From an uncultured Acidobacteriota bacterium (GTDB taxonomy: Bacteria; Acidobacteriota; Thermoanaerobaculia; Multivoradales; UBA5704): DNA of 64,000 bases. Position 1 is the stretch's first letter. The number at the start of each line of letters is the position of its first letter. Shown here one piece after another: positions 25,065 through 55,900 of this stretch. The position numbers and the translations under genes are program-made. The notes under the pieces were generated by a model. That model worked only from the letters and a program-made list of their open reading frames with translations, was not told the DNA's origin and did no database searches. Location: the NCBI GenBank assembly GCA_963770895.1, contig CAVYRF010000002.1, forward strand, positions 1,952,001-2,016,000, read 5' to 3'.

Positions 25065-25089
25065 CACCTCCTACCTTTCTTCCGTGCGC

Positions 25090-26735: not shown

Positions 26736-26749
26736 AAGCTTTCCCGCCA

Positions 26750-28227: not shown

Positions 28228-28239
28228 TGGTGCCGCTCC

Positions 28240-30354: not shown

Positions 30355-30384
30355 GCCCCCCGCCCCGCCGCCCCCGCCCCCCAA

Positions 30385-31056: not shown

Positions 31057-31165
31057 CCGAGCAGCGCGGGTAGCTCGCTGGCGCGTTAGACGGGGCGCAG
31101 CTCGCCGGGGGGGCCACCTGGGCGTTGTTGCTTGCGTAGATGACGACGTTGCCAAGGACCCGCTT
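31057..31165. repeat. Degenerate copy of about 32808-32930
   Basis: AGCTCGCTGGCGCG.TAGACGGGGCGCAGCTCGCCGGGG...GATGACGAC.T.GCCAAGGAC shared; the copy carries stop/indel damage. Confidence 0.8.
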
Positions 31166-31405
31166 CGCACAACGACGACGAGGGGGGCGTAGCGACATTG
31201 TCCAGCTTTACGGCAAGCGCGCCCCGAGTGGCGAGAACCATTCCGCGAGACGGGCGGGAGCGATCAGATGCAGCTCCTGGCTCCAGGAGGTTTGGGTTCG
31301 TCAGAAAGACCCGCCGCTGACACCGCGGACGCCTCTGCGCTGTCGCTGTGTCCGGTGACCTGCTCCCCGCTGGAGCGCTATACTGAACGGGGGGGTGTAG
31401 ATGCG

Positions 31406-31642
31406 ATGGTGTACCACGGAACAGTAAAGGGTGGCGCAATTGTGCTTGATCCCGGTGTCAAGCTGCCAGACGGAGCGACAGTGCGCGTGGAGTTTGACCC
31501 GCCGGAGGGCTCGCCGAGCGGCGCCGGCGACGATCCGCTCCTGAAGATGGTCGAGCTGGCTGTCGAGACCGGCATCCCGGACCTCGCCACCAATGCCGAT
31601 CACTACCTCTACGGCCATCCCAAGGCGAGCGATGCCGGCTGA
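31406..31642 (+). CDS. Putative VapB-type antitoxin
   Basis: YHGTVKGGAIVL...LPDGATVRV...DLATNADHYLYG; overlaps the PIN gene. Confidence 0.75.
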   Translation: MVYHGTVKGGAIVLDPGVKLPDGATVRVEFDPPEGSPSGAGDDPLLKMVELAVETGIPDLATNADHYLYGHPKASDAG

Positions 31643-32063
31643 GGCCGTGTTTCTCGATACCAACGGCTGGCTGGCTCTGCTGAACTCCTCCGATCTACTC
31701 CATTCCGCTGCGCGCCAGGCTTGGGCAAGCCTGGTAGCCCGACAGCGCCGGGTCGTTCTTACCGATTGGATCGTCGCGGAAACCGGGAACGGCTTGGCTA
31801 AGAGCCGCGGACGGGAGCAGTTTGTGGCCGCTGTGGGTCTTCTTCGCGCCAGCCCAAGGGTGGAACTGCTCCAGGTCTCCCCGCCGCTTCTCGACCGCGC
31901 CCTTGCGCTCTACGCGCGGAGGGCCGACAAGTATTGGGGATTGGTGGATTGCGCGAGCTTCGTGGTCATGGAGGACATGGGGATATCGCAAGCCTTCACC
32001 AACGATCGCCACTTCGAGCAGGCCGGATTCACCAACCTTCTGCCAGGTCCAGGCGCCTCGTAG
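31632..32063 (+). CDS. vapC: PIN-domain VapC toxin
   Basis: VFLDTNGW...TDWIVAE...LVDCASFVVM...FTNDRHF. Confidence 0.9.
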   Translation: MPAEAVFLDTNGWLALLNSSDLLHSAARQAWASLVARQRRVVLTDWIVAETGNGLAKSRGREQFVAAVGLLRASPRVELLQVSPPLLDRALALYARRADKYWGLVDCASFVVMEDMGISQAFTNDRHFEQAGFTNLLPGPGAS

Positions 32064-32092
32064 AGGCGGTGCTTGCCGCCTGGGTAGGGCGC

Positions 32093-32188
32093 GGGGACTT
32101 TTTTGTTTCCAATTCGCGGCTGCACACGGCGCGCTGCGAGCCGGTCACCAGCACCCCACTGGTAGAGATTCGGCCCTCCCCTCCCCCA
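32093..32188 (-). other. Conserved non-coding cos/packaging-site-like motif, copy 1
   Basis: Minus strand GGGGGAGGGGAGGGCCGAATCTCTA...GTGACCGG...CCGCGAATTGGAAACAAAAAAGTCC, directly downstream of DUF2280; homologous to 41282-41377. The cos function is inferred. Confidence 0.5.
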
Positions 32189-32230
32189 GGGCTCCGCGCT
32201 TACTGCGATTCGGGCATTGTCTTCCCCTTG

Positions 32231-32668
32231 TCAGCGGCCATTTTCGGGAAGGTAGATGACAATGGATGGGGGCAGCGGTGCGCCTCCCTTCCCGGATAGT
32301 TCGCGCCGATTGGTGAGCAGGCCGCCGACTTCCTCGGCGGCCTGGCGCAGGTGGCGAGCGGCCAGAGCGTCGTTGCCTCGGCTCTTGGCGCGACGGTATA
32401 GGGCCTGAAGCTCAGCAAGGCGGAAGGCTTGATGCGCGATGCCTTGCTGGGCGGTCTCTTGGATGTATGCGTCCCTGGTTGCGTCGAAGAGGACGCGCCA
32501 CTTCTCGGCCAGGTCGGGGGAGTGATCAGGGTGGTAGCGCCATGCTTGCCGGCGGTCGATGGTGAGATTGAAGCGTTCCGCGACGGCTTCCACAACTTCC
32601 GATGGCTCGCGGAAGCAGGCAAGTTGCTGCACGATAAACAGTTGCACTTCTTGTCGTAGCTTGGCCAT
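32231..32668 (-). CDS. DUF2280 family protein (terminase small subunit-like)
   Basis: MAKL...FIVQQLACF..PS.V.EAV...LAEKWRVLFDATR...IAH.AFRL..L...QAAEEVGG..TNRRELSG..G.P. Confidence 0.85.
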   Translation of the reverse strand: MAKLRQEVQLFIVQQLACFREPSEVVEAVAERFNLTIDRRQAWRYHPDHSPDLAEKWRVLFDATRDAYIQETAQQGIAHQAFRLAELQALYRRAKSRGNDALAARHLRQAAEEVGGLLTNRRELSGKGGAPLPPSIVIYLPENGR

Positions 32669-32683
32669 GGTCTGGTTTCCGTC

Positions 32684-33187
32684 TCAGCTGGGTCGCGGTA
32701 AGGCGGGCGACCTTGGGTGAGTGCTATTGGGCGAGGAGTCGGTCATGGTGCCGCGGAAGGTCTTCTTGAAAGCGTGGACCTGGCGCAGGTCGTCGGGGTT
32801 GGTGAGGCCGAGCAGTGCGCGCAGCTCGCTGGCGCGATAGACGGGGCGCAGCTCGCCGGGGTCCACGTGGGCGTTGTCGCTGGCGAAGATGACGACCTCG
32901 CCAAGGACACTGCTTCGCATTTCGACGACCAGGGCGGCGGTGGCGAAAACGTCCAGGGTCATGGCGCAGACCTCGTTCACCCGGAGGGGTGGCGCTGCTT
33001 CCGTGACGCCGGCCAGGGCCAGGGTGGGAGGAGACAGGAGGCGGAGGAGATTGGGCTTGTGCTTGCGCAGCTCCTCCAGCAGGTCTGGTGGGACGGCTTC
33101 GATCGGTCGAAAGCGAAGGCGGTTGCCGGAGGCCGACAGCTCGATTCCCCGGCGATCCAGCTCGGCAAGGATGCTCTCGGGACTCAT
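32684..33187 (-). CDS. Hypothetical protein with TubC-N-like N-terminal domain
   Basis: ILAELDRRGIELSASGNRLRFRP...LLEELRKHKPNLLRLL; this type of gene often follows replication genes in phage-related elements (from memory). Confidence 0.65.
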   Translation of the reverse strand: MSPESILAELDRRGIELSASGNRLRFRPIEAVPPDLLEELRKHKPNLLRLLSPPTLALAGVTEAAPPLRVNEVCAMTLDVFATAALVVEMRSSVLGEVVIFASDNAHVDPGELRPVYRASELRALLGLTNPDDLRQVHAFKKTFRGTMTDSSPNSTHPRSPALPRPS

Positions 33188-33499
33188 GGGTGTCAGACCT
33201 CGCCCCAGGCTGCCCCGTCGGCAGCAGGAGCTACGGCGGCGGAAACGACTGCTCCGCTCAAAGCCTGATTTCCCAGGCTTTCGGCAGCATCCCATTTCTG
33301 CCGCGCCCATTCTGCTTGGGTGGCGGGAATCCGCTCTTCGCAGAATGCAGATCCAGCAGGCGTTTCATGGGTGTCGCCATTTCCGCCGCCGTCCGCCGGC
33401 GGCTGGTGGTTGGGGAGACGCATTGAGGGGCCTATGCGGTGCCAGGCCACCGGAAGCCAGTTGACATGCCCTGTCCCGATAGTCACAATTCTGGTCATC

Positions 33500-33823
33500 A
33501 TGGTGAGGCGGCGGCCCTATGCCCTGGTCTACGCTCCCGTGGTCAAGTCGCACCTGCGGGTGATCGAGCGACACCATTACTCGTTGATTCGCGCGAGCAT
33601 CGAGGAGCAACTGCGGTTCGAGCCAGGCATCGAAACCACGAACCGCAAGCCGTTGCAGCAGCCTGCCCTCATCGCGGCGCAATGGGAGCTGCGCTTCGGC
33701 CCCGACAATCGGTTCCGTGCCTTCTACGAGATCGACCACGAGAGCCGGAAAGTCTACATCCTGGCGCTCGGTGTCAAGGAGCGGAATCGTTTGCTCATCG
33801 GAGGAGAGGAGGTAGATCTTTGA
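33500..33823 (+). CDS. RelE/ParE-family toxin
   Basis: EEQLRFEP..ET.NRKPL...WELRFG..NRFRAFYEID...V.ILALGVK. Confidence 0.85.
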   Translation: MVRRRPYALVYAPVVKSHLRVIERHHYSLIRASIEEQLRFEPGIETTNRKPLQQPALIAAQWELRFGPDNRFRAFYEIDHESRKVYILALGVKERNRLLIGGEEVDL

Positions 33824-34143
33824 AGATTGCATCGGTTGCAGAGGTCAAGGCTCAGTTCAGCGCCTACCTGAAGCAGAGCGAGCAGGGAGCGGTGATCGTC
33901 ACCCGCAACGGCAGGCCGGTAGCTGCGTTGCTGGCCATCCGGGACGACGAGGAGCTCGAAAACCTGGTCCTGGCGCACTCGCCTCGCTTGCGGTCGATCC
34001 TGGGTGCGGCACGGCAGCAGATCCGCGCCGGCGAAGGAGTCGATCACGGAGATCTTTGGCGCGAGATGGAGGCGGCGCCGCCCAAGGCGCGCCGCAAGAG
34101 CAAAGCCAGAAGGGTGCCTTCCGGCAAGCAGGGTAGTGCGTAG
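33820..34143 (+). CDS. Phd/YefM-family antitoxin
   Basis: KIASVAEVKAQFSAYL...VIVTRNGRPVAAL; TTGA overlap with the toxin. Confidence 0.88.
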   Translation: MKIASVAEVKAQFSAYLKQSEQGAVIVTRNGRPVAALLAIRDDEELENLVLAHSPRLRSILGAARQQIRAGEGVDHGDLWREMEAAPPKARRKSKARRVPSGKQGSA

Positions 34144-34229
34144 CAGGTCAGTGAAACCTGGACGCTCACTCATCTTCATTCCTCGATGCGAGAGCGGGCT
34201 TGGCCATCTGCTAGCTGCTGCGGCCGCCC

Positions 34230-34320
34230 ACACCCGCCCGCCCGGTATGCGCACCTGCCTGACGATCCCCGGCGAGCCGTTGCCGAGCAGATCGCCGGCC
34301 ACCTCGCTTCCCTGAGCGCC
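34230..34320 (+). pseudogene. Tyrosine integrase C-terminal remnant
   Basis: ARYAHLPDDPRRAVAEQIAGHLAS resembles the catalytic-Tyr tail 'T.RYAHL.DDP.R.A...IA'. Confidence 0.55.
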
Positions 34321-34415
34321 AAACCGAAAGGGGGGCCAGCTGGCAAGCTCTGTGTGGCGAAGGGATGCTGGCAGGCGCCGACCTAAAACCGTGACAGGTG
34401 CCGGGAGGGTATCTT

Positions 34416-35162
34416 CTAGGCGAAGTCGTCGCTCTGCCGCCAGCGGGTGTCCTCGATCGTAGCGCCGTCATCGAGATCGCTGATGGCGAGGTAGCCGCCG
34501 CGGCCGTGAGGCTTCATGCAGGCACGGGCTGCCCTCAACCGATCGCGGATCTTCTTCTCGTCCCAGAGACCGGCGTCAGCCAGCACCTTGGGCGTGCCCC
34601 CCTTGGGGATCGCGTAGAGAAGGAAGAGGTACTGGCCCCAGAAGTCCCGCTGCTGTCGCGGTGTCCCGACCACCTTCTTGTTCCGCCGCAGCACCACGTC
34701 AATCTGATACCGCCGGAGCTTGGCGCGGGCGATGGTCCACTGTGCGCGGAGATCCTTGGTGACGTCGAAGCTCACCAGATAGGTGCTGTCGGTGACGTCC
34801 GGGGGGGCCGAGCCTTCCCGGATCTCGGCGGCGGTCGTAACGGTCCCGAAGGACCGTACGAAGCGCAGGTCGTCCGGCCACATCTCGTTCGGGTCGTGGT
34901 AGCCGGCCACCAGGCCCCAGCGCTCCAACGCTGTCGGATCGGGGATGGTCTCGGGCTTGGGGGGCGCCCGCAGGACGTTCGGGTCGGGCTCGGGCGGTGG
35001 CGGCCGGCGCTCCTGCCATTCGGCCCGATAGGCCGGATTCCTGCGGAGGAACTGCCAGGCCCAGGCTTGGAGGGTCAGCCAGGCGGGGATCTCCTCCGCC
35101 TTGAACCTCTCGAACTCGGCCACCCAATCGATGGCTGGAGGCGCTTCGCCGGTCGTCGCCAA
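34416..35162 (-). CDS. DUF6499-like (transcriptional-regulator-like domain) protein
   Basis: WAWQFLRRNPAYRAEW...ERWGL motif. Confidence 0.7.
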   Translation of the reverse strand: MATTGEAPPAIDWVAEFERFKAEEIPAWLTLQAWAWQFLRRNPAYRAEWQERRPPPPEPDPNVLRAPPKPETIPDPTALERWGLVAGYHDPNEMWPDDLRFVRSFGTVTTAAEIREGSAPPDVTDSTYLVSFDVTKDLRAQWTIARAKLRRYQIDVVLRRNKKVVGTPRQQRDFWGQYLFLLYAIPKGGTPKVLADAGLWDEKKIRDRLRAARACMKPHGRGGYLAISDLDDGATIEDTRWRQSDDFA

Positions 35163-35230
35163 CTGATGACTGCCTGATGCCTGTGGTTTTCCGGGGACGG
35201 AGTCGATTTGCTCTAAGTTGTTGATTTGAT

Positions 35231-35279
35231 TGGTGCACCCAGGAGGATTTGAACCACCAACCTACAGATCCGTAGTCTG
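35231..35279 (-). repeat. att site: duplicate of the tRNA-Arg 3' 49 bp
   Basis: TGGTGCACCCAGGAGGATTTGAACCaCCAACCTACAGATCCGTAGTCTG matches 44975-45023 with one mismatch. Confidence 0.95.
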
Positions 35280-35435
35280 CCACGAACTGCATTAGCGGCG
35301 CTACGCTCTGTTTTCACTTCAGTGGTAAGTGATTCACTTGGCACGCTTTAGTGGTACCATGAGGATGCATGGCGAGTCAAGGTACGGCCTGCTCTATTCG
35401 CCCCGGATTCGCCCCAGGGCAGAGGGAGATGCGAA

Positions 35436-36707
35436 ATGCCACGACGGGCGGCTGCGATCCTTACGGACATCGCCATTCGTAGGCTGCGGCCGACGGCGCA
35501 GCGCTATGAGATCCGGGACGCCTCCAGGCCGGGCTTCGGGGTCCGGGTGGAGGCGGACGGTCGCAAGGTGTTCTTCCAGCGTTATGGAACGCGCGGCGAA
35601 AGGCGCCTCACGCTGGGCGCCTACTCCGGGGCATTCGGACTGGCACAGGCGAGAGCCGCCGCGGACAAGGCGCGCGCCGATCTCGCGGCCGGCCTCGATC
35701 CCATCGAAATCAAGCGGCAGCGTCGCCAACTGGAGCACGATGAAAGGCAGGCGCAGAAGGCGGCGCGTGATGGCCGGCCGGCTCCGGGTACGTTTGCTGA
35801 GCTAGCGGAACGCTACCTGCGAGACGCAAAGCGCCGCCGCCGGGAGCGCAGCGTGCAGGAGGACGAACGCAAGCTGCGGGTGGAGGTGCTTCCAGGATGG
35901 GGCGCGAGGCGCGTCCGGGAGCTTCGGCGTGCCGATGTTCTGCGCCTGGTCGAGGACTCGCGAGAGCGCGGGGGCGTGTGCTCCAATCGGACCCTGGCGC
36001 TGGTCCGCGCGGTCTTTCAGTACGCGGTGGACCGCGAGGAACTGGATGCCAACCCCGCACTGCGCATCCCGCGGCGCTATCTTTTTGTAGAGAAACCCCG
36101 CGAGCGCGTCCTGAGCCGCGCCGAGCTGCGCTCTCTGCTTGCCGTTGTAGACGACCTTGGCCCCATCGTCGGCGGGGCCTTCCGCATGATTCTTGTGACC
36201 GCCCAACGTCCCGGCGAAGTACTCCGCATGCGATGGGAGGAGATAGGCCGAGACGAAGGCGGTCCCTTCTGGGAGCTTTCAGATGAAGTTGCAAAGGCGG
36301 GCCGCGGTCATCGCGTCCCGCTCTCTCGCCAGGCAATCGCCGTGCTCGAACCGCTCCGGCGAATCACAGACTCGACCCCATGGGTTTTCGCGTCACCCTC
36401 GCCGCGGACGGAAGGGCCGGTGCGCTGGCTTTCCCATGCGGCGAACCGGCTGAGGCAGAAATCCGGCGTCGATCACTTCACCCCTCACGATCTCCGGCGC
36501 ACGGCGGCCACCTGCATGGGCGAGCGAGGGGTGCGGCCTGACGTGATTGAGCGCGTCCTGAACCACGTGCAAGCCAAGATCGCGCGCACCTACAACCGAG
36601 CCACCTACGATGCAGAGAAGCGCCAAGCTCTTGCCATTCTCGGCGACCTCATCGATTCGCTTGCGTCGGGCGAAGAAACGCCGTCGAACGTGGTCTGGCT
36701 TGCATGA
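35436..36707 (+). CDS. int: Tyrosine integrase (P4-like, N-terminal arm-binding domain)
   Basis: TAQRPGEV (R), HDLRRT (HxxR), LNH, TYNRATY (Y); N-terminus LTDIAIRRL...IRD...GFGVRV..G.K.F. Confidence 0.95.
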   Translation: MPRRAAAILTDIAIRRLRPTAQRYEIRDASRPGFGVRVEADGRKVFFQRYGTRGERRLTLGAYSGAFGLAQARAAADKARADLAAGLDPIEIKRQRRQLEHDERQAQKAARDGRPAPGTFAELAERYLRDAKRRRRERSVQEDERKLRVEVLPGWGARRVRELRRADVLRLVEDSRERGGVCSNRTLALVRAVFQYAVDREELDANPALRIPRRYLFVEKPRERVLSRAELRSLLAVVDDLGPIVGGAFRMILVTAQRPGEVLRMRWEEIGRDEGGPFWELSDEVAKAGRGHRVPLSRQAIAVLEPLRRITDSTPWVFASPSPRTEGPVRWLSHAANRLRQKSGVDHFTPHDLRRTAATCMGERGVRPDVIERVLNHVQAKIARTYNRATYDAEKRQALAILGDLIDSLASGEETPSNVVWLA

Positions 36708-36763
36708 GCCATGCGCCAGGACCAGTTTCGGGGAGCTAATTCTGCTGGCGCCGGAGGGATAAA

Positions 36764-37441
36764 ATGGGCATCAACGAGATCAGGGCTAGCACAGAGAGAT
36801 CCTTCGACCGCTGGCTAGCGGCAATAAGCAAGTTCGACTACTTCTATATGACCGTTGCGGCCGGCCTCTTGGCGTTCATCGCCAAGGACTACCATCCCCG
36901 TAGACTTGACTCTTGGCTGGACTTCTTCGATCCGGTCTCGATGCTACTTCTCATCGCCGCTTTTACGGTAGGCGCGCTCCGCGTGCAATTGGCCACGCAC
37001 CTGCTGTACCTCGAAGTGGAACAAGGGAAATGTCTATTCAGGATTGAGAAGTACCGGCCGGGCCTCACTAGCCCGGTTCCTGGGGAGGACAATGCCACCG
37101 GCCAAGCAATTGGGAAGGTCGAAGCACAAGAGACAGTGGATGCGGAAAGGGCAAGGCTCAGGGCCATCACGGAGGCGACGGCGAAGGTGACTATGCGCGC
37201 CGCAAAATTTTACCAAGCCCGAGTCTGGCTGCTCGCGGCTGGAATAGGCTTGCTCTTGGTTGGCCGAATACTGACTCCCTACTTCCCTGCATTCGCGGGT
37301 ACCGTTTCCATTCAACAATCCCCAGCGGCGACGACTGGCCCTGCAGGCTCGGCCGTCGGCAGGTCCTCGCCTCAGCTCTTGCTGGAGCAGAAGCTGCCTG
37401 CGCCTGCGGCTGAACCTACACAGGTCCGCCACCCCAGGTGA
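36764..37441 (+). CDS. Hypothetical three-TM membrane protein
   Basis: GGAGG RBS; three hydrophobic segments (about aa 24-40, 58-72, 154-171); KFDYF motif. Confidence 0.7.
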   Translation: MGINEIRASTERSFDRWLAAISKFDYFYMTVAAGLLAFIAKDYHPRRLDSWLDFFDPVSMLLLIAAFTVGALRVQLATHLLYLEVEQGKCLFRIEKYRPGLTSPVPGEDNATGQAIGKVEAQETVDAERARLRAITEATAKVTMRAAKFYQARVWLLAAGIGLLLVGRILTPYFPAFAGTVSIQQSPAATTGPAGSAVGRSSPQLLLEQKLPAPAAEPTQVRHPR

Positions 37442-37626
37442 CAGAATTGATTCCCGCCGCCCGCCCCGACGGCTTGGTGGCGGGCAGTGCCGCGCTCTTC
37501 GCCAGCCGGCTGGGCGGCTCCCCGGCCGCTGGACGGCGATCGCGGCACCTGAAGCCGCCGCTCCTGAGCCAGCCGCGCTGCCACGGCTGGCTGCGGCACC
37601 CGGTCATTCGCGGTAGACTCCGCGAT

Positions 37627-38685
37627 ATGGAGCGGAGCATGACGGCGATCGATCTCTTCGCCGGCGCCGGGGGGGGCACGGAGGGTCTGAAGGCGGCCGG
37701 CTTTCGGGTAGTCGCTGCCGTCGAAAACGACCGGACTGCGTGCAGGACTTACCGGCTCAACCATCCTGGCGTCGTCCTGATTGAACGCGACGTTCGGCGA
37801 GTCACCGGATCGGATCTTCTGCGCGCGGCTGGGTTGCGGAAGGGTGAGACGTGCCTGCTCCAGGCCTGCCCGCCGTGTCAGACGTGGTCGTCGCTTGGCT
37901 CTGCATCCGCTGAGGACCCGCGGAACCAGCTCGTGTCCGTCGTGTCCGAGCTAGTTCGGAAGATCCGCCCCCGTGCCTTCGTGATCGAGAACGTTCCCGG
38001 TCTGCGATTCGATGCGCGGCTCGCTGCTCTCGTTGCGGAGGCTGGACGCCAGCGGTTCCGAGTGCGGGCCTATGTCGTCGACGCGCAGGACGTTGGGGTG
38101 CCGCAACGCCGGCGCCGCCTGATTGTCATCGGCATCCGCAGTCGGCGGCAGGTGGAACTGCCCGAGTCGCTTTTGGACCTGCTGCCAGCCGAATTCGACT
38201 GCACCGCTCGGACAGTCCGCGATGCCATCGGCCACCTGCCAACGCCTGGCGTTGGCGACGATCAACTGCACCGCGGCAGAACCTTGACCGACCTCGTTAC
38301 GCAGCGCGTGGCCGCTCTTCCGCTGGCCGGGCGAAGGACCGACCTTCCAGAGCACCTTCAGCTTGCTTGCCACCAGAAGCTTAAGGGCCGGGTCGCAACC
38401 GCGGCGTATGGACGTATGGCGGCAACCGAAGTTGCTCCCACCCTGACGACTAGGTGCACCACTCCGGCGTGCGGCTCGTACGTGCACCCCTCCGAGAACC
38501 GGGGCATCACCCTGCGCGAGGCCGCGTTGCTCCAGACTTTTCCCGCGAGTTACCTTTTCAGCGGTGGCTACGGTGCGATCGAGCGGCAGATTGGCAACGC
38601 CATTCCCGTCCGCCTCGCCGAGGCTGCGGCCATGGCTGTGCGGACGCTTCTCGCGCCAGCGGGCGAAAGGCGACTCGGGACGTGA
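37627..38685 (+). CDS. DNA (cytosine-5)-methyltransferase
   Basis: Motifs I DLFAGAGG, IV PPCQ, VI ENV, VIII PQRRRR, IX REAALLQTFP, X QIGNAIP; start position uncertain. Confidence 0.95.
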   Translation: MERSMTAIDLFAGAGGGTEGLKAAGFRVVAAVENDRTACRTYRLNHPGVVLIERDVRRVTGSDLLRAAGLRKGETCLLQACPPCQTWSSLGSASAEDPRNQLVSVVSELVRKIRPRAFVIENVPGLRFDARLAALVAEAGRQRFRVRAYVVDAQDVGVPQRRRRLIVIGIRSRRQVELPESLLDLLPAEFDCTARTVRDAIGHLPTPGVGDDQLHRGRTLTDLVTQRVAALPLAGRRTDLPEHLQLACHQKLKGRVATAAYGRMAATEVAPTLTTRCTTPACGSYVHPSENRGITLREAALLQTFPASYLFSGGYGAIERQIGNAIPVRLAEAAAMAVRTLLAPAGERRLGT

Positions 38686-40724
38686 CGCCTAACTCTACGA
38701 ACGGGCCGTCCGCCACCACGACGGTGCCCGAGGCGCCGCTCGTCCTCAAATTCGGCGGCTCCCTAGTCGAGCAGCTCGGGGCGCAGCTATACCCCAGCGT
38801 GACCGCCACAGTGGCAGAGCTCCTATCCAATGCCTGGGACGCGGAGGCCAAGAACGTCTGGATCACAATGCCGTTTGGCGTGTGGCATGCCGACGACCGC
38901 ATCGTGGTGACGGACGACGGACATGGCATGACGCGATACGAGGCGCAGCACTCGTACCTCGTCGTGGGCCACAAGCGGCGCGGGGAAGGCCGAGGCGCGC
39001 TGTCTGCGAGTGGTCTGCGCCGCGTTCACGGACGCAAGGGCATCGGCAAGCTGGCGGCATTCGGCACGGCTGGCATCCTCGAATGCTCGACGCTAAAGAA
39101 CGGCCAGCACGTCGCCTTCAGGTTGAACTACGACGAAATCCGCAAGCTCGATCCATCGGCAGACTACACGGTAGAAGACGCGGTGGATCTTTCGGCACCG
39201 ACGAATCCAGAGAGCGGTTGCCCGCTCGAGCACGGCACCCGCATCAGCCTCTCGCGGCTGCTGCAGAAGAGGGCGCTCGGCGAGGGCCAGTTTTTCCGGT
39301 CCATGGCTCGGCGGTTCGCGATCTCGGCCGACGAGATGGCCGTGCGCATCAACGGTACGCCGCTTCAGCGGTTCGACATGAGCGTCCAATTCAGGTTCCC
39401 GCCGGACAGCATCCCCGAAGGCGTGGCGATCGCCAACGGCTGGGCGGTCGAGTCTATCGCGCCCGGCCACGAGGTGCGCTGGTGGATCGGTTTCACCGAG
39501 AAGCCCTTGGAAGACGAGACGCTTCAGGGCATCTCCGTCCTCGCCAATCAGAAGATGGCCCAGCGGCCGTTTCTATTCGACCGCTCGCGCGGCACTGAGG
39601 GACAGCTCGGACAGGAGTACCTCGTCGGCGAGGTGCAGGCCGATTGGATCGACGCCGGCACTGACGTCGAGGACGACCTCATCCAATCCAACCGAGACCA
39701 GCTCCAGATCGAAGACGACCGCCTCACGGTTTTCGTCGAGTGGGGACGCAGGCGCTTGGCGTGGGCACTGAAGGAGCGCAACCGGTTGCGGCAGGACGCC
39801 GCCGTGCGGGGCTTCGAGGCAAGCCAAGAGCTGCTCCAGCTGTTCGACCCCTACACGAGAACAGAGCGGGCACAACTTCTGCGGCTCGCGGTCAACGCCT
39901 CAAAGCTGCCGGAGATGACCGGCGACTCCCTCCTAGAGCTCATGCAGTCGGTCGTAGACGCGAGATCGGACGCCGCTGTGCGCCAACTGATCGAAGAGAT
40001 CGAAGCATCCGACGAAGCGGTGCAGCCCCGCATGTGGGGACTGGTCCGCCAGTTCGGCCTGATCGATGCCCGGCGTACCTTCAGCATCATCCAGGCTCGG
40101 CTGAAGACGATCAGCAAGCTGAAGGAAGCCCTTGCCGCTGGCGCCAAGGAGGTGCCCGACCTACATGACATCGTCAAGAAGGATCCTTGGCTCCTCGACC
40201 CTCGCTGGCACCTCCTCGACGACGAGGTCGACCTGACGAAGTTGGGCATCGACTTCCAGCCGGCGACCGACGAGACCGGCCACCGGCTCGACTTCATGTT
40301 CGCGCTCATGCCCAAATCGCCCGCCCCACTCGACGAGATCATCGTTGTGGAGATCAAGCGCGGATCCGATCTGCAGGGGAAAAAGCGCGTCGCAACCGAG
40401 GAGGAGGTCAACAAGTTCCACTCGTACGTCCTTGCGGCCAGGGAGCACGAGCAACGCAACGGCTCGCAAGCAAAGGTGCGGGGCCTCATGATCACCCAGG
40501 GCTACACGGCAAACGGCAACCGCGTCAAGCAGAGCCTGGAGGAGAACCCGACGATTGAGCTTCGCTTCAGGACGTGGGACCGCGTCATCGCCGAAACCGA
40601 GCGCATGCACCTCGGATGGCTGGAGGTTTCCCGGGCAAGGAGCCGAGCCGAGGAGCCGGAGCCTGAGTTGGTCGACGAGGATGCCGTGGTGGAAGCACCG
40701 TCTCCTGACCATCCTCAGAGGTGA
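38682..40724 (+). CDS. GHKL (MORC/MutL-like) ATPase fused to a C-terminal PD-(D/E)xK nuclease
   Basis: ELLSNAWDA, DDGHGM, GRKGIGKLA, HGT boxes; C-terminal RLDF...IIVVEIKRG; GTGA overlap with the MTase. Confidence 0.88.
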   Translation: MTPNSTNGPSATTTVPEAPLVLKFGGSLVEQLGAQLYPSVTATVAELLSNAWDAEAKNVWITMPFGVWHADDRIVVTDDGHGMTRYEAQHSYLVVGHKRRGEGRGALSASGLRRVHGRKGIGKLAAFGTAGILECSTLKNGQHVAFRLNYDEIRKLDPSADYTVEDAVDLSAPTNPESGCPLEHGTRISLSRLLQKRALGEGQFFRSMARRFAISADEMAVRINGTPLQRFDMSVQFRFPPDSIPEGVAIANGWAVESIAPGHEVRWWIGFTEKPLEDETLQGISVLANQKMAQRPFLFDRSRGTEGQLGQEYLVGEVQADWIDAGTDVEDDLIQSNRDQLQIEDDRLTVFVEWGRRRLAWALKERNRLRQDAAVRGFEASQELLQLFDPYTRTERAQLLRLAVNASKLPEMTGDSLLELMQSVVDARSDAAVRQLIEEIEASDEAVQPRMWGLVRQFGLIDARRTFSIIQARLKTISKLKEALAAGAKEVPDLHDIVKKDPWLLDPRWHLLDDEVDLTKLGIDFQPATDETGHRLDFMFALMPKSPAPLDEIIVVEIKRGSDLQGKKRVATEEEVNKFHSYVLAAREHEQRNGSQAKVRGLMITQGYTANGNRVKQSLEENPTIELRFRTWDRVIAETERMHLGWLEVSRARSRAEEPEPELVDEDAVVEAPSPDHPQR

Positions 40725-41233
40725 CGATGCAAGAGCCGTGCGGCACACTCGCCCCAGATCCCGAGCTGTCCCACAAGACGCGGAAGGTGCGTCCCCCATC
40801 AGCCCGCGACCGAGCGCGGCTGGTTGCTCAGCGGCGGCACGAGACGGCGCCCGAGATGGCCGTTCGTCGTGAGATGCACCGGCTCGGGCTTCGCTATCGC
40901 ACGCACGTTGCCGTTCTCGATGGGACGCGCAGGACCGTCGATATCGCGTTTACCAGGGTGCGCGTGGCCGTGGACGTTCGCGGCTGCTGGTGGCACGGCT
41001 GCCCCGTCCACGGATCGTTGCCGCGAGCGAACACCGAGTGGTGGGCGGCTAAGTTCGCTGCCGTACGGAGGCGCGACGAGGACACCGAGGTACGGCTGAG
41101 GCAAGCCGGATGGCATCTCGTCGTCGTCTGGGAACACGAGGACCCCGCCATCGCCGCACTGCGCATCGACGCCGCCGTCCGGGGCGGGGGCCTCGCGCGC
41201 CTCCTCCCTACATCCAGTCTCGACCTAGTTTAG
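40721..41233 (+). CDS. vsr: Very-short-patch repair endonuclease
   Basis: TAPE..VRR.MHR.GLRYR...DIAF...GCWWHGCP.H...P..N..WW..K...RRD...GW..V.VWEHE; GTGA overlap. Confidence 0.92.
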   Translation: MTMQEPCGTLAPDPELSHKTRKVRPPSARDRARLVAQRRHETAPEMAVRREMHRLGLRYRTHVAVLDGTRRTVDIAFTRVRVAVDVRGCWWHGCPVHGSLPRANTEWWAAKFAAVRRRDEDTEVRLRQAGWHLVVVWEHEDPAIAALRIDAAVRGGGLARLLPTSSLDLV

Positions 41234-41281
41234 CCGTAGTGCGAGGATCTCCTGCGCGGAACCCCCGTGTGCAGCTCCCGA

Positions 41282-41377
41282 GGACTTTTTGTTTTCCAAT
41301 TCGCGGGCGCACCCACGCTGCCGCGGTCCGGTCACTGGCTTAGTGGTGCTAGAGATTCAGACCCCCCTACTCCCCCC
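41282..41377 (-). other. Conserved non-coding cos/packaging-site-like motif, copy 2
   Basis: Minus strand GGGGGGAGTAGGGGGGTCTGAATCTCTAG...GTGACCGG...CCCGCGAATTGGAAAACAAAAAGTCC. Confidence 0.5.
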
Positions 41378-41577
41378 GACAAGCGTCAGATGCTCGCCAC
41401 GCTCGCCTAGCGAAGGGTGGAAACGGCTCCCGGACCTACTAGCCGCTAGCCTGCCGTGGTGGTCGTCATGCAGGGATCGCAGATGGTGAGGCAAGACACC
41501 GAACAGGCCTCAGTTGGGCGAGCTCCTGGCGCTTCGCGCAGCACCTGGGCGGTGAGCGTGGCTAGCGTCTCGCGGTT

Positions 41578-42189
41578 TGTTGCCGGCTGAGCAGACCCGC
41601 TGCTATTCGGTGAAGAACGCGTGTCACCGCCGCTGCTTAAATACCGCTGCTGGAGGGCGCCCTCGGCGTCGGCTGGTATTGAACCAGCGGTGGAGGGGTC
41701 GAAAGCGTAGGAACTCTGTCCGAACTGTTCCGCAGACTGGGCAGACTGGCGGCCGCGGTTCGGTATCGGGCGAGAGGAGGCCGGCAGGCTGGGGCGTATT
41801 GCGACACTGCTCCGTCACGACCGGTCGGCGCTCCGATTGGCGGTACCGGGCTTGGCGCTCTGCATGAAGCAGCCGTCCGCGTGGCGTAGCCTGGTGGCGC
41901 CTGTTGGATGCTCGCTGCTTCTCCCTGCGTGCGGCTCGCGCACACACCTTGCCGCAGTAGATGTTGCCTCGGTCGCACCCCGAGCAGATCGCGACCAATG
42001 CGCGACACCTGAGACAGCAGTACAAACGCTGAGCCTTCATGGTAGAGCCAGTCTACCGCCAGCCGCCGGCCCGCCGGTCCCCCTTGTCCACCCCCCCGGC
42101 GGGGATGATGCTGAGGGAACTTCACCACCTCCGATGGCTGAGAACTGCGTTCTTCACCGGATAGCAGCGGGTCTGCGCAGCCGCCAACA
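41578..42189. mobile_element. 612-bp non-autonomous IS21-like mini-element
   Basis: 43-bp TIRs (40/43 identical, TGT...ACA); 5-bp TSD CGGTT at 41573-41577 and 42190-42194; no transposase. Confidence 0.92.
41624..42040 (-). CDS. Cys-rich, Arg-rich putative zinc-finger protein (only ORF of the mini-element)
   Basis: CLRC..V.ICSGCDRGNIYCG..CAR.ARR...HAERQARYR...CPVC; I recall this type upstream of IS21-family istAB. Confidence 0.75.
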   Translation of the reverse strand: MKAQRLYCCLRCRALVAICSGCDRGNIYCGKVCARAARREKQRASNRRHQATPRGRLLHAERQARYRQSERRPVVTEQCRNTPQPAGLLSPDTEPRPPVCPVCGTVRTEFLRFRPLHRWFNTSRRRGRPPAAVFKQRR

Positions 42190-43132
42190 CGGTTGAATGC
42201 CAGTTTGGGGGACCGCTTCTGCATTTGGTTTCTCCTTTCGCCGAAAAGCCCTGATCAGACGAGATGACCGCGCGGCTTGAGGCGCCAATCGGCCCCACCA
42301 CCGCGCGGCAGAATTCTCGCATGAAAGAGGAGACGTGGGCGTCAAGGGTTCCGCGCCTGTCGCTAAGACCTGCACAGGACCACCACCAAAGTTCACAGAA
42401 TCGATTCCCTGAGGTAGGCAATCCGCGACGCCATGCTCATTTATCTACAGTGATTTACGCCTTGTTAGGTGCGATGGCTTGGGTGCGAGGCTGTGGTGGT
42501 TGGTAGAGACTCCGACCACCACAGCCAGCAACGCCAAATCCCCCGATCAACCTGGGCACGACACTGCCGACGATAAGGTATGCCCCGGCGCGCCCAGGCA
42601 AGCCCCGGCGGAAGAGAAGGGAAGGATGGCGGCGGGGCGGTTGGACGAACGCTGGAATGGTTGGCCCGATTCGTCGGATTACGGGCGGGCGTGCTGGCAG
42701 GTGACTGTCGCGGCGGGCACACCCCCTCCCATGCCTGGGAGGTGAGGTGTTAGGCGGGCGGCTGGGAAACCGCAGGGAAGGGCCTTTCAGGGCAGCCCTC
42801 GCCTTTCCGGGTTAGTCTTGTTTGCCGGGTCTAGCCCGGCGCCCAGGCATTCGACCGGGACGTGGGGGTCGAGGTGCTTGCGCACTCTCGGACGAGATCA
42901 AATACTCGTCGCCGTTGCCCGGATTTCCCCGTGCCTACCACTTTGCCGGCAGCGATCATTGCCAGCCCTGTTGAGCCTTTTCGGTCTTTCACCTTGGACA
43001 AGGCTTTTCCTATCGTAACCATCGCAACGCGGCCCGGCCCACTCTCCACAGTCGGCCGGGCCTATAGTCTTCAGCGGACCTGAAATTTCCGTCCAACAAA
43101 GCGTCAGTCGTGCAGCGGGGCCTTGCCGGTCC

Positions 43133-43342
43133 TCAGCCTGCGGCGGTCGTTGGAATCGCTCGCGGGCCGCGGGGAAGACTGGCGAGGAACTTGTCCAGGT
43201 CTTCGCGGAACCAGCCGGATGCATGCTCGCCCAGAATGACTCGCGGAGGGAGCTGTCCCGCTCGTTCGAGGCGATATAGAGACGCCCTGCTGAGGCCGAT
43301 GTAGACCGCTGCGGCGGCAGGGCGCAAAACTCTCTGTAGCAT
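43133..43342 (-). CDS. alpA: AlpA-family regulator/excisionase
   Basis: AAGGAGA RBS; VLRP.....IGLSRASLYRLERAGQLPPRV.LG..ASGW...DLD.F. Confidence 0.88.
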   Translation of the reverse strand: MLQRVLRPAAAAVYIGLSRASLYRLERAGQLPPRVILGEHASGWFREDLDKFLASLPRGPRAIPTTAAG

Positions 43343-43639
43343 CAAGATTCTCCTTGCTTGGCAGGCAGTGCGCCATGCGCTGCCTGGGACGCTCGGGGTA
43401 TCAATCGCACGCGTAAATTGAAACATGTCGGCTTGCCCCTTTGCAAGTTTGCTCATAATTCAATCGATGTCCTTCACAACACGTGCATGCACGTGCAGGA
43501 ACGCAATGTGCCAGGGCGGCTCATGGAGGATTAGCGGGTCCGCCGCCGGCAGCTCGCTCGATCTCAAAGTGAAGCATGGGAGGCTCGCCTTGTGCCACAT
43601 CCAATTGCAGCCTGCCCTGTGCAAAACTGGTGTAAGCCG

Positions 43640-44489
43640 GCCTTCGCCAAGTTGCTGGGTCTGGAAGGCCGCGGAGAGCAAATCCACGTTCACCGTATCG
43701 AACTGGCCTTGGATCATTCGGCCTCCAGTGCCGGCGCGGCGGCGGATGCAGCGGCGGAAGCGCCGATCCACGGGGCGCGCCAGCTGCCGGTCTGTAGGTC
43801 CATGAAGGCCAGGCAGCAGTGAGCCACAGCCTTGCCGCACTCCTGAGCCAGCCGCAGGATGTCCTTGTGGGATCTCGCCGGCGGCGTCCGGATGTCCAGC
43901 GCCCGAGTGTCCAGCGGCAGGGTGTCCGGCTCCCTGGTGTCCGGCGGCAGGGTGCCGTCTTCCGGCGGCCCTTCCTGGCCGGCTGGCCTTTGCTGGGCTC
44001 GGTAGAGATCCGTCAGGGTCAAACCCATGGCGGCCACGATGCGCCCGAGGGTGCGCGCACAGGGCTGGCGGATGCCCTGCTCGTATCGGGCCAGGGCCGT
44101 CGAGGTGCACCCGACCTGCGCGGCAAGCTGCCGCAGGGTCATACCCGTATCTCGGCGAAGTCTCAGGATCGCCAGCCCAACGAGCTGTGCTTCGTCGGCG
44201 TTCCGCTTCCGATGCCTCCCCTTTGCGGGTTGGGCCTTCATGACAGCTCTCCTTCGATTGAACCGGCCAGGTCGCCTACCTTTGCGGCGAGCTTGCCGGC
44301 GAAGTGGGCCAGGTCGTCGTCGGCCGGTTCCAGGCAAGAATCCTGGGCGGACTTGCGCACGGAGCGCAGGAAGCCTTCGACGAAGCGCAGCTCGGCAGCC
44401 GCGGCCCGCAGCTCGGCGCGGGTGATCGAGTCTTTGTCGGGGAAGTCGGTCGTCTCGACGGCCATGTCGTAGATGAGCCTCCCGACCTG
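43640..44489. repeat. Inverted homolog of 26750-27555
   Basis: Same three-gene block (hypothetical, XRE, start of MGxFDT gene) in the opposite orientation, with long identical stretches. Confidence 0.9.
43714..44241 (-). CDS. XRE-family HTH regulator (paralog of 26999-27481)
   Basis: LRLRRDTGMTLRQLAAQVGCTSTALARYEQG; carries extra 15-bp tandem units (PDTRE/PDTLP/LDTRA/LDIRT). Confidence 0.85.
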   Translation of the reverse strand: MKAQPAKGRHRKRNADEAQLVGLAILRLRRDTGMTLRQLAAQVGCTSTALARYEQGIRQPCARTLGRIVAAMGLTLTDLYRAQQRPAGQEGPPEDGTLPPDTREPDTLPLDTRALDIRTPPARSHKDILRLAQECGKAVAHCCLAFMDLQTGSWRAPWIGASAAASAAAPALEAE

Positions 44490-44597
44490 ACGGAGGGCTT
44501 CGCGGGACACGGGGTCGTCAATGCAGATCAGCGTCGTTTCCCGGAACGAATCGGCGGGGTTCCAGGGGTGAGGGGTAGACTGCGGGTGGTCGGGCAT
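44238..44597 (-). CDS. Hypothetical protein
   Basis: GGAGG RBS, ATG, coupled to the XRE gene; second partial copy at 26750-27002. Confidence 0.75.
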   Translation of the reverse strand: MPDHPQSTPHPWNPADSFRETTLICIDDPVSREALRQVGRLIYDMAVETTDFPDKDSITRAELRAAAAELRFVEGFLRSVRKSAQDSCLEPADDDLAHFAGKLAAKVGDLAGSIEGELS

Positions 44598-44974
44598 GGG
44601 ATGCCTCCGTGCTCGGCAAGTCCCCGGCGGGAGCTCGTTACTTCCGCCGGGGGCGTCTGACTGAAACGGGGGCGGCGCGTGCCGCCCCTCTGTGCTCTGG
44701 GTTCAGGTGGGAACGTGGCCTGCCGCACCAACGGGCCGGATCGTCTTGCTGCCAGCGCTGGCACCGGTAGCGCGCCGCGCGGCTGGACCGGCTGGGCGAC
44801 CACAGAATGTATACCTGCCGGCGGCTTGGAGCGGGTGGGAATGACGGCGTGCCTAATGCCAGGGGCGGCCGTCAACCGTCGTTCGTTTTCGCCCCTCATT
44901 CGCCCCTGGCAGACACGGTTGCCCGAGCCTTCGGAGGCGCTCCAGCGCAAATCGCTTAGATCGTTGGGGTTAGG

Positions 44975-45051
44975 TGGTGCACCCAGGAGGATTTGAACCC
45001 CCAACCTACAGATCCGTAGTCTGTCGCTCTATCCAGTTGAGCTATGGGTGC
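44975..45051 (-). tRNA. tRNA-Arg(ACG)
   Basis: GCACCCA TAGCTCAACTGGATAGAGC G ACAGA CT-ACG-GA TCTGT AGGTT GGGGG TTCAAAT CCTCC TGGGTGC ACCA; 77-nt cloverleaf with CCA. Confidence 0.97.
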
Positions 45052-52914: not shown

Positions 52915-55900
52915 CTACCGGCGAGGTTCGCTGGGCTGGGCCGCCGGTATGCCGGCCGCGGTGGCGGCGGTGTCGCGGCGCCGGCGCGCGGCAGCCTGCT
53001 CCGGCGCGGGCTTGGCGGCGAGCAGACGGCGCAGCTTGGCGGCCAGCGCCGCGACCGCTGGCTGCCGGACGATCGCGTAGTGATCGCCGGGGAGCACCTC
53101 GATCTCGGCGCCGGCGCGGCACAGCGCCGCCCAGGCGGCGGCATTGGCGGCTGCGCTGGCGCCCGCATCGGCGGCGGGGAGGGCGCCGTTGCCGTTCGGC
53201 GGCTGGTGCCGGGCGGCGAGCAGCAGGTTGAGGGGGCCGGGGGCGGGGGCCGGACGGTAGCGGTCCAGGGCGCCGCGGGTGGTGCGGAACAGCGCGAAGA
53301 GGCGCTCCAGGTCGTCCGCCGCCAGGTCCGCCGGGATCAGGCCGGCGGCTTGCGCGGCGGTGGCCAGGTCGGCCAGCGGCAGATCGGCGCTCAGCCGCTG
53401 GATCCCGGCGGCGGCGGCCAGCGCTGCCGTGGAGTGCGGTCCGGCCATGCTGGCCAGGTCGCGCAGGAACTCGCGGCGCAGGCGTGCCGGAGGGGTCGGC
53501 ACCGGCGGGATGCCGCGGCGCAGGGGGGCCGGGTCGATCAGCACCAGCGGTTCGACCCGCCGGCCGGCGGCGCGCAGCTGGCGCGCCATCTCGAAGGCGA
53601 TGGCGCCGCCCAGCGACCACCCTCCCAGCGCCAGGGGGCCGTCCGGGGCGCCGCTGCCCGGCATGGTAGCCATGGCGGCGACGTAGCACGCGGCGAGCGC
53701 TTCGATGGTGGGGTCGGATGGCAGCGACGCCGGGTCGGGCAGCTGCAAACCGTAGAACGGCTGGGCGTGGCCCAGGCAGCGCGCCAGGTCGGCGTAGCAC
53801 AGCACGTTGCCGCCGGCCGGGTGAACGCAGAAGAAGGGTCGCGCCGCAGCCTGACCGCGCCGCCGGCGTGGCGCCCGGCCAGGCCGCGCCGGTGCCACCG
53901 GTGATGCCGCCGTCGCCGCCGTCGGCCATGGTGCGGGGGGCTCCGGGGTCAGCTCGACCAGGGGCGAGCGGCCGCCGGCGGCGGCGCCGGTTTGCAGCAG
54001 CGCCGCCAGCTGCTCGACGGTGGCGGCGCGAAACAGCGTGGCGAGCGGCAGATCGCGGCCGAAGGTGTCGCGGATGCGCGCGACCAGGCGCACGGCCAGC
54101 AGCGAATGGCCGCCGAGCGCAAAGAAGCTGTCGCCGGCGCCGACCCGCTGGACGCCCAGCAGCTCGCCAAACAGCGCCGCCAGTGTCCGCTCGTGCGCAG
54201 TGCGGGGCGCGACGTGGGCCGCGTCGCCGGTCCCCGCACCCCAGACCGGCGCCGGCAGGGCGTTGCGGTCGAGCTTGCCGTTGGCGGTCAGCGGCAGCTG
54301 GTCCAGCCAGACGAAGTCGGCGGGCACCATGTAGTCGGGAAGCCTGGCGGCCAGGGTCTGCCGCAGCTCGGCGAGCAGCGCCGCGCGCCGGGCGGCGCCG
54401 CCGTCTTTGCCATCGCCGTCTGGATCGCGCGGTACCAGGTAGGCGACCAGGCGCAGGTCGGCGCCGGCCGCGGTGCCGGCGCGGCGCGCCGCCGCGGCGG
54501 CGGAGCGCACCTGCGGATGCGCGCTCAAGGCGGCCTCGATCTCGCCCAGCTCGATGCGGAAGCCGCGCACCTTGACCTGGCCGTCGATGCGGCCCAGGAA
54601 CTGCACGGCGCCGTCGACCCGGCGGTGCACCAGGTCGCCGGTGCGGTACAGGCGGGTGCCGGGCGGCGCGGCGGGCGCGAAGGGGTCGGGGACGAAGGCC
54701 GCCGCCGTCAGGTCCGGCCGTGCCAGGTAGCCGCGCGCCAGGCAGTGGCCGGCGACGCACAGCTCGCCGGCGACACCCGCCGGCACCGGCTGCTGGCGCC
54801 GGTCGAGCGCGTACAGGCGGGCGCCGGCGATCGGCCGCCCCAGCGGCACGGTCTGCGCGGCGGGTTGGCCGGGATCGCACGGCCATTCCGAGATGGAGAC
54901 GGTGGCCTCCGTGGGTCCGTAGCGCGCGATCAGCCGCGCCTCCGTCGCGCCCATGGCGGCGTGGAAGCGCGCCGGCAGGTCGCCGGGCACGCGGTCGCCG
55001 CCGGTGACGACGCGGCGCAGCGCCGCACCGGCGCGCCAGTCGGCCTCGGCGAGCAGCAGCGGCAGCAGCGCCGGCGGCACGTTGATATTGGTGACCTGCT
55101 GCTCGGCGACCAGCCGCGCCAGGGCAGCGGCCGACTGCCGCGGGGCCGGCGGCGCCAGCAGGACCGTCGCCCCGATCCACAGCGGCGCGAAGACCTCTAT
55201 CACCGAGACGTCGAATCCGAGGCGCGCGCGTTGCAGCACCCGCGCGTCGGGCGTCAGGTCGCTGGCGACCTGAAAGCGCATGCGGTTGGCGGCGGCGCGG
55301 TGGCTGATCACCACTCCCTTGGGCATCCCGGTGGAGCCGGAGGTATACAGCACGTACGCCGCGCTGTCAGGTTGCACCCGGCCGGCTGCAGCGTTCTGCC
55401 GGCGCCGTGGCCAGGCCGGCGCGGGCTGCTGCGCCGCGGCATCCGTCCATTCGTCCGGCGTGGCCGTGAGCGCCACGACGCGGGCCGGCGCGGCGAAGCG
55501 CCCGGCCAGGCCGTTGCCGGCCAGGACCACCGTCGCGCCCGACGCGGCGACGATCTGCGCCAGGCGCTCGTCCGGGTGGGCGGGGTCGAGCGCCAGGTAG
55601 GCGCCGCCGGCCTTCAGAATCGCGAGCAGGCCGGCCACCATCTCGAAGGAGGGCTCGGCGCAGATGCCGACGACGCGCTCGGGGCCGACCCCCAGGCGCC
55701 GCAGGCGGTGCGCCAGCTGCGTGGCCCAGGCGTCGAGGCTGGCATAGGAGAGACATCCAGCCCCAGGGGCGGAGCCGCCGTCCGGCGCGCAATCGACCAG
55801 CGCGATCGCCTGCGGGCGGCGCGCCGCCTGCAGCTCGAAGGGACCGTGCAGGGAGTGGTCGTCCGGAGCGCCGGCCGTCCAGGGCTCGTGGTTCCATTCC

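Follow-up and report, generated by a model that had tools for sequence, protein, structure and literature searches.

An integrative island in an uncultured Acidobacteriota bacterium carries an interrupted member of a large, dispersed family of putative class I lanthipeptide precursors

The 64,000-nucleotide stretch of DNA analyzed here (the window) covers positions 1,952,001 to 2,016,000 of contig CAVYRF010000002.1 from an uncultured Acidobacteriota bacterium (GenBank assembly GCA_963770895.1), referred to below as the host. It contains a 9.8-kb tRNA-targeting integrative island, in which a direct repeat of the 3′ end of tRNA-Arg(ACG) bounds a tyrosine integrase, and within the island lies P3, a small gene encoding a putative lanthipeptide precursor, which is split by a 612-bp transposable element. 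A model's reading of the letters alone (the sequence-only reading) had already described an element bounded by attachment (att) sites at this position, and the 49-nt repeat, 98% identical to the tRNA 3′ end, agrees with it. The gene order of the island is integrase, 225-aa open reading frame (ORF), C5 methyltransferase, candidate GHKL-ATPase restriction enzyme, Vsr endonuclease, P3 on the opposite strand, AlpA-family gene, and frameshifted helix-turn-helix (HTH) regulator gene. The guanine plus cytosine (GC) content is 62-67% inside the att repeats and 70-72% beyond the tRNA. The coordinates of these features are listed in Table 1.

Table 1. Features of the P3 island and its surroundings, and the candidate modifying enzyme encoded elsewhere in the host genome
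Feature	Position	Strand	Details
P3, 5′ piece	42190..42224	-	ATG + 11 codons + 2 nt; 42194-42190 is one target-duplication copy
P3, 3′ piece	41446..41577	-	remaining leader, Cys/Ser/Thr core, TAG stop; 43 codons + stop
P3 Shine-Dalgarno, AAAGGAGA	42231..42238	-	6-nt spacer to ATG (42224-42222)
Transposable element splitting P3	41578..42189		612 bp; inverted ends 41578-41631 and 42136-42189
138-aa Cys-rich ORF in the element	41624..42040	-	8 invariant Cys in 4 relatives
~100-nt repeat called 'cos-like'	41263..41376		sole other genomic copy at 32076-32190
Distal att copy	35231..35279		49 nt, 98% identical to tRNA-Arg 3′ end
tRNA-Arg(ACG)	44975..45051	-	3′ 49 nt (44975-45023) form the proximal att copy
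P4-type tyrosine integrase	35436..36707	+	Arm-DNA-bind_3, Phage_int_M, Phage_integrase
225-aa ORF, no assigned function	36764..37441	+	83% identical DNA copy in genome G009
C5 cytosine DNA methyltransferase, type II	37438..38685	+	family scans
GHKL-ATPase restriction enzyme candidate	38454..40724	+	PADLOC REase_II, E 3e-33
Vsr-type nicking endonuclease	40721..41233	+	family scans
AlpA-family regulator/excisionase candidate	43133..43456	-	family scans
HTH_31/HTH_3 regulator fragment	43714..44337	-	frameshifted copy of a multi-copy gene
Host LanB dehydratase candidate	C2:5181313-5183361		1177 aa; Lant_dehydr_N 550 bits + Lant_dehydr_C

The element that splits P3 ends in 54-nt inverted repeats that are 85% complementary, and it is flanked by a 5-bp target duplication, CGGTT, at 41573-41577 and 42190-42194. 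Because a near-identical second copy (C2:5252172-5252783, 2 positions differ) is flanked by a separate 5-bp duplication of its own, CTTCT, the boundaries of the element are exactly defined and it inserted by genuine transposition; the 612-bp element is a real, recently active transposable element. When the element and one CGGTT copy are removed by coordinates, an open frame of 162 nt is restored, with 53 codons, a stop and 0 internal stops, which upholds the proposal that P3 is a split gene. The open read-through frame and the exact ends of the element also bear out the proposal that P3 was intact before the insertion. P3 is now dead because the element landed in codon 12: it is a pseudogene today that was intact until this recent insertion. 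A 195-aa ORF at 41637-42224 was rejected as a gene, being the P3 start reading on into the element. The ribosome-binding site, the core with 4 Cys and 8 Ser/Thr, all within the final 24 residues, and the convergence on the restriction-modification operon, where the Vsr gene ends at 41233, were all found as the sequence-only reading had given them. A scan of 41200-42700 detected 0 promoter-like sites and 1 terminator-like site, with 0.9 expected.

A leader profile built from 41 seed sequences, P3 excluded, matched the read-through P3 at 31.4 bits (E 7e-7 against 108,811 ORFs, rank 57 of 92) and the 3′ piece on its own at 19.7 bits. Since both are matched by a profile free of P3, it is no chance ORF, and the 5′ piece raises the score as a family N-terminus should, which supports the reconstruction. 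The leader motif of P3, L-x-F-x-R-x5-L, spans the restored junction; its F and R are conservative departures from L-x-L-x-K-x5-L, and at the expected cleavage point P3 has P-G-A, where most paralogues show G-G or A-G. In the alignment, P3 is in register with 27 paralogues, and over 38 residues it shares 50% identity with the nearest of them in sequence, C1:925357-925476. No orthologue was found in a word-indexed protein collection queried with the 3′ piece, nor among 9 genomes of the same genus, where the best identity was 43%. The DNA around P3 has no match in 40 related genomes; of the whole-island DNA, these genomes match only the integrase, the 225-aa ORF, the HTH family, the tRNA, and the 612-bp element at its ends.

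P3 belongs to a family found throughout the host genome. Following a motif scan, the leader profile retrieved 92 ORFs at E≤0.1 and 86 at E≤0.01, and an independent search with a 28-sequence alignment gave 91 family members. Two further members, P1 (19510-19689) and P2 (23284-23463), both on the reverse strand, bring the number in the window to three. The earlier description of P3 as a lone precursor does not survive this count of about 90 paralogues over the chromosome, and the apparent loneliness is explained by the existence of the genome-wide family. The family leader starts with M-K-K and contains L-x-L-x-[K/R]-E-T-L-x-x-L (consensus KLxLxRETLRxL, with R mostly in place of K), followed ~12-18 residues on by G-G, A-G, or G-A. 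The core that follows is hypervariable, 15-45 residues long, with 2-8 Cys and many Ser/Thr, which are present in every core; CxxC and CxxxC spacing dominates. A Shine-Dalgarno-like 4-mer is present at −16 to −5 in 77 of 83 members, and the 7-mers shared upstream of these 83 reflect GC-rich background only. Single genes or pairs of them are dispersed over the genome, with hardly any next to an enzyme; among the host members listed, just three have a LanC gene within ~1 kb. An ADOP-type permease lies within 4 kb of 12 of the 86 members, against ~6 expected by a rough estimate from 51 loci, a weak signal that could reflect a link to export or immunity, or chance; the permease in the window matches the ADOP family (TIGR03434), which is typical of Acidobacteriota.

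Within the taxonomic family of the host, 20 of 24 other genomes contain matches, mostly 17-62 each, and the host has the highest number, 91. Across a phylum sample of 201 genomes, for which at most 32 candidates per genome were scored, 6 matched at E≤1e-6, including the unpublished G182. When 1.84 billion cluster representatives were searched with a profile, 10,222 matched at E≤0.001, and among 10 checked representatives one carried the source name 'natural product precursor'.

The leader pattern points to class I lanthipeptides. Walker et al. (2020, PMC7268733), in the part of that work considered here, describe class I precursors (LanAs) in which an LxLxKx5L leader replaces FxLD, often with a GG end and with a C39 protease in the cluster. 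Compared with the pinensin-type class I precursors of Bacteroidetes as that part presents them, the host family shares the leader pattern, the GG/GA end, the Cys/Ser/Thr-rich core, and C39 ATP-binding cassette (ABC) exporters in the clusters of its relatives; unlike them, it mostly has R for K, belongs to a different phylum, and has its precursors dispersed from the enzymes, and its member P3 is broken. In three genomes, which represent three other families of the order, family members lie directly beside class I enzymes. G030 encodes a single member immediately upstream of LanC, LanB, and a methyltransferase; the order in G027 is HlyD, C39-ABC exporter, precursor, LanC, LanB; and in G025 LanB comes first, then two precursors and two LanC. 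With 23.0 bits against a cut-off of 22, the precursor of G030 passes NF038153, the curated NCBIfam model 'class I lanthipeptide'. The family leader, the G030 match, and the adjacency of LanB and LanC in relatives sustain the original suggestion of a lanthipeptide-type precursor.

Over its full length, the candidate host LanB shares 47-49% identity with the LanBs of G030 and G027, and its nearest Atlas clusters are LanBs of Bacteroidota. Its gene lies tail to tail with a LanC gene; the surrounding genes encode chorismate synthase, RNase II, and a secretion ATPase, and no precursor is in the vicinity. A second host LanB is divergent (124.5 bits), and there are 14 LanC-domain matches, including two LanM-sized and two LanKC/LanL-sized frames, as well as nine C39-domain matches, one of them an exporter of the NHLP type; LanC, C39-ABC, and HlyD genes cluster at C2:2.966-2.975 Mb. 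Co-occurrence was examined in 41 genomes (the host and 40 relatives). Of the 25 genomes with the precursor family, 21 encode a LanB above the threshold of 470 bits, as does 1 of the 16 without it (G029), and the other 4 family genomes have partial, split, or lower-scoring LanB matches, at least one of them at a contig end. From these sequence comparisons, we consider it probable that P3 is a recently inactivated, trans-dependent member of a large, lineage-specific class I LanA-type family, carried as cargo in an integrative island.

Several observations weigh against this interpretation. P3 has G-A at the expected cleavage point and F for the second L of the motif, and the 3′ piece, which was the only part of P3 included in that scan, matches no NCBIfam model (NF038153 included) or Pfam model. 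NF038153 gives P1 16.9 bits, below its cut-off of 22, and does not match three other members. The co-occurrence count makes the support look larger than it is, since genomes of close kin are not independent, and no host precursor adjoins LanB, so maturation in trans is an assumption. Cys-rich cores would also suit disulfide-bonded peptides or targets of radical S-adenosylmethionine (SAM) enzymes, an ambiguity that PMC11118758 also points out, in the portion considered. With 91 copies in 8.16 Mb there is, moreover, a chance of ~10% that any 9.8-kb stretch holds one, so the position of P3 within the island may mean nothing.

Some of these points would be accommodated if the family were not lanthipeptides at all but double-glycine-leader peptides that are only exported and disulfide-bonded, or modified by another enzyme class, for example through radical-SAM thioether formation, the LanB link being a coincidence of lineage. 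The dominance of CxxC and CxxxC in the cores would fit such peptides, as would the nine C39-domain matches of the host, the NHLP-type exporter among them; most members score below the NF038153 cut-off, one has a weak match to TIGR04117, the Cys-Xaa-Xaa-Xaa radical-SAM target model (18.8 bits, cut-off 50), and shared descent can yield co-occurrence among kin. However, this account leaves unexplained why precursor, LanC, and LanB are adjacent in three genomes of three other families, why the G030 precursor passes a curated class I leader model, why Ser/Thr occur in every core, and why LanB is so unevenly distributed between genomes with and without the family. We regard it as unlikely.

If the family is of class I, the leader would recruit the single conserved LanB, which would dehydrate Ser/Thr of the core; a stand-alone LanC cyclase would then add Cys to form thioether rings, and a C39-peptidase ABC exporter would cut after G-G or G-A and export the peptide. 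The island encodes no modifying enzyme, and for that reason any P3 product would depend on enzymes of the host; the LanC-domain gene nearest to P3 is ~714 kb away. The host dependence put forward in the sequence-only reading is plausible in this respect, with maturation in trans as its assumed part.

The sequence-only reading had gone further and taken the island to be a phage satellite whose lone precursor, matured by borrowed host enzymes for ribosomally made and post-translationally modified peptides, would possibly serve as a weapon for anti-phage defense, helper interference, or competition. In favor of this, the island encodes a P4-type integrase and an AlpA-family protein, a defense cassette is present in the same island, and dependence on host enzymes is plausible. 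Anti-phage class I lanthipeptides have been reported (bioRxiv 10.1101/2024.06.26.600839), and class II lanthipeptide clusters are said to co-localize with restriction-modification systems (PMC12715929), in both cases as far as the available parts of these sources go. Against this, the satellite hallmarks are limited to the integrase and the AlpA-like gene: scans of the island ORFs with Pfam, PHROGs, and PADLOC found no primase/replicase or other replication family, no capsid, capsid-redirecting, packaging, or terminase gene, and no satellite-specific family, and Sid/Psu/Delta, Cpm, and TerS (small terminase) had no match among the ORFs scanned. At the gathering threshold of Rfam the tRNA was the sole match. 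The island resembles P4-like satellites and the CP4-57-like P4-integrase/AlpA islands at tRNA genes in its integration at a tRNA 3′ end with a direct repeat, its arm-binding P4-family integrase, and its AlpA-family gene, and it differs from the satellites in having no detectable primase-helicase, Psu, Sid, Delta, or cos. Because these could not be found, it falls outside the definition of a satellite; the element is an integrative island and not demonstrably a satellite.

The cos site of that proposal corresponds to a conserved stretch of ~100 nt that ends near 41376, ~70 bp from the P3 stop. The distance is as first stated, but the cos label finds no support. The motif has exactly two copies in the 8.16-Mb genome, 72% identical to each other; it has no Rfam match, was not found at the DNA level in 40 related genomes, and folds no better than shuffled sequence, with z-scores of 0.03 to 1.58 for both copies on both strands. 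Nothing supports reading it as a packaging site. Both copies lie directly downstream of addiction or defense cassettes, the one at 41263-41376 following the restriction-modification operon and the one at 32076-32190 a PIN toxin-antitoxin pair. Together with the islands of related genomes described below, which have no precursor, the ~90 paralogues in ordinary chromosomal contexts, and the present broken state of P3, these findings make a satellite weapon improbable.

Integrases with ~79% protein identity to that of the P3 island are encoded in G003, G004, and G001. The G004 island lies at a tRNA-Arg and includes DUF5681 and DUF433 genes, and the G003 island lies beside a tRNA-Thr with an HTH gene and a protein of the AAA_25 family, which the P3 island does not encode. 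No member of the precursor family was detected in the G003 or G004 islands at E≤0.1, and none in 26 related restriction cassettes, contrary to the expectation that related elements would repeatedly carry precursors at this position. Two other att-delimited islands of the host, at tRNA-Thr (C1:1428709-1439213) and tRNA-Ser (C2:1338801-1350347), also hold no member, and two family members lie just outside the latter. At 6 of the 17 integrase loci of the host a member lies within 6 kb, against a mean of 1.9 in shuffled arrangements, 16 of 2000 of which reached at least 6. In G009, a family member lies 1.5 kb from the homolog of the 225-aa ORF of the island, and P1 and P2 are found in the decayed island-like DNA on the left side of the att site. 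A recurrent partnership between islands and precursors is not shown by these data, and the location of P3 may be incidental.

The neighborhood to the left of the island bears on whether P3 belongs to the island at all. The low-GC region 19100-35230 (59-69% GC) contains PIN and Phd genes, a TubC_N fragment, an intact 368-aa paralogue (26671-27777) of the HTH fragment of the island, and tRNA-like repeat remnants at 25175, 28241, and 29445; it resembles a stack of older islands at the same site, now decayed. P3 could in principle be a resident chromosomal copy trapped between two tandem integrations at tRNA-Arg, its position next to the cassette being accidental. The resemblance of the DNA at 19-35 kb to decayed islands, with its PIN/Phd genes, HTH paralogue, and other copy of the ~100-nt stretch, would fit such a history, as would the presence of P1 and P2 there and the ~10% chance of finding a copy in any 9.8 kb. 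Yet a single att pair bounds 35231-45023 with no further copy between, and the G003 and G004 islands share the layout of tRNA, HTH gene, cargo, and integrase from end to end; it follows that everything between the ends is one element. A trapped resident copy is thus very improbable.

The restriction-modification cassette has a different distribution from that of the peptide family. Its GHKL enzyme scores 248.7 bits against the NCBIfam BbrUII/HgiDII model, whose cut-off is 550, and it is for this reason a relative of these enzymes and not an equivalog. The arrangement resembles BbrUII/HgiDII-type restriction-modification with Vsr repair, since a C5 methyltransferase, a GHKL-ATPase restriction enzyme, and Vsr are present in one operon, and differs in that the island restriction enzyme falls below that cut-off. 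The closest relatives of the GHKL enzyme are from Chloroflexota (66% amino acid identity), Actinomadura (59%), and Dehalococcoidia, and among 26 related loci the methyltransferase is linked in 25 and Vsr in 12. The pair of GHKL enzyme and C5 methyltransferase occurs across Chloroflexota, Actinomycetota, Rhodothermales, and one archaeon at 31-66% identity (loci L050-L075), as a widely transferred cassette. By these comparisons, the cassette is a travelling unit acquired horizontally from outside the host lineage. As the peptide family is confined to the host lineage and the relatives of the cassette are in other phyla, the island most likely picked up P3 in a host of this lineage.

The 612-bp element that silenced P3 has no recognizable transposase. 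Its 138-aa Cys-rich ORF matched no family in Pfam, NCBIfam, PHROGs, or PADLOC; its predicted structure has a mean predicted local distance difference test score of 67 and no fold match in the PDB at E≤0.001, and the two homologs found are unnamed. G034 contains six inverted-repeat elements of ~600 bp, L079 and L080 among these loci, each with a homologous ORF of ~140 aa and 8 Cys. The L080 copy sits amid repeated GGTTCATCCCCGCTCGCGCGGGGAAC units that resemble an array of clustered regularly interspaced short palindromic repeats. In the host, the C2 copy of the element lies ~100 bp from a paralogous P4-type integrase gene (C2:5252877-5253371), which is duplicated 15 kb away (C2:5267806), there adjoining two family precursors. 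With its terminal inverted repeats, 5-bp duplication, near-identical copies, and additional metagenomic insertion sites, the element resembles small insertion sequences and miniature inverted-repeat transposable elements, and it is unlike them in holding a conserved 138-aa Cys-rich ORF without a recognizable transposase.

The insertion was also sought in metagenomes, by comparing 40500-43300 with the contigs of four soil runs from two studies, among which the source sample of the assembly may itself be included. Contigs match the region at ≥99% identity and bridge the occupied left junction in X1 and X3, both from one study; the occupied right junction is covered by just 30 letters on one side. 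No contig in the four runs joins across the element as an empty site would, a result that in contigs cannot prove absence. Loose contig ends at the termini of the element indicate other insertion sites.

Two further observations concern the window at large. A 111-nt direct repeat, 99% identical, occurs at 30244-30354 and 34589-34699, 4.3 kb apart. Giant reading frames flank the island region at 1-18984 (6328 aa) and 52915-63999 (3694 aa), both on the reverse strand and both leaving the window. A nonribosomal peptide synthetase or polyketide synthase is a guess from their size alone.

Taken alone, P3 is of modest interest, being a dead gene of a recognizable precursor family; its context matters more. 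The unusual part is the family, with a class I enzyme set apparently serving up to ~90 dispersed precursors. A close parallel is in marine cyanobacteria, with the class II enzymes ProcM, acting on the prochlorosins, and SyncM, acting on SyncA, where up to 79 substrates are described for one enzyme (PMC9872173, in the part considered). Like the host family, prochlorosin systems have dozens of scattered precursors in which the leader is conserved and the core hypervariable, and which are far more numerous than the enzymes, as are the 86-92 precursors of the host in relation to one strong LanB, one divergent LanB, and 14 LanC-domain matches. The best-known natural lanthipeptide systems in which one enzyme serves many substrates are the class II systems of ProcM and SyncM, and to our knowledge they are the only ones. 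Prochlorosin systems are unlike the host family in using one bifunctional LanM and Nif11-type leaders, whereas the host candidates are a separate LanB and several LanC. In a literature search, with most subscription journals and all supplements outside its scope, neither dispersed class I precursors nor a precursor-only gene carried by an integrative element or satellite came up in any paper.

We tentatively propose, as a possibility and with some doubt, that a class I equivalent of the prochlorosin systems operates in the host lineage, in which one LanB and several LanC would serve up to ~90 dispersed precursors and islands would sometimes move precursors between strains, P3 having been caught in the act and later silenced. 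For annotation, the caution is that a precursor on a mobile element may seem to stand alone without being special cargo. Throughout the bacterial family, tens to ~90 scattered precursors per genome appear to be served by a class I enzyme set. If this is true, these bacteria would hold a natural library of class I scaffolds together with a substrate-tolerant LanB/LanC set, and the idea that islands spread enzyme-less precursor genes reliant on resident machinery would become testable.

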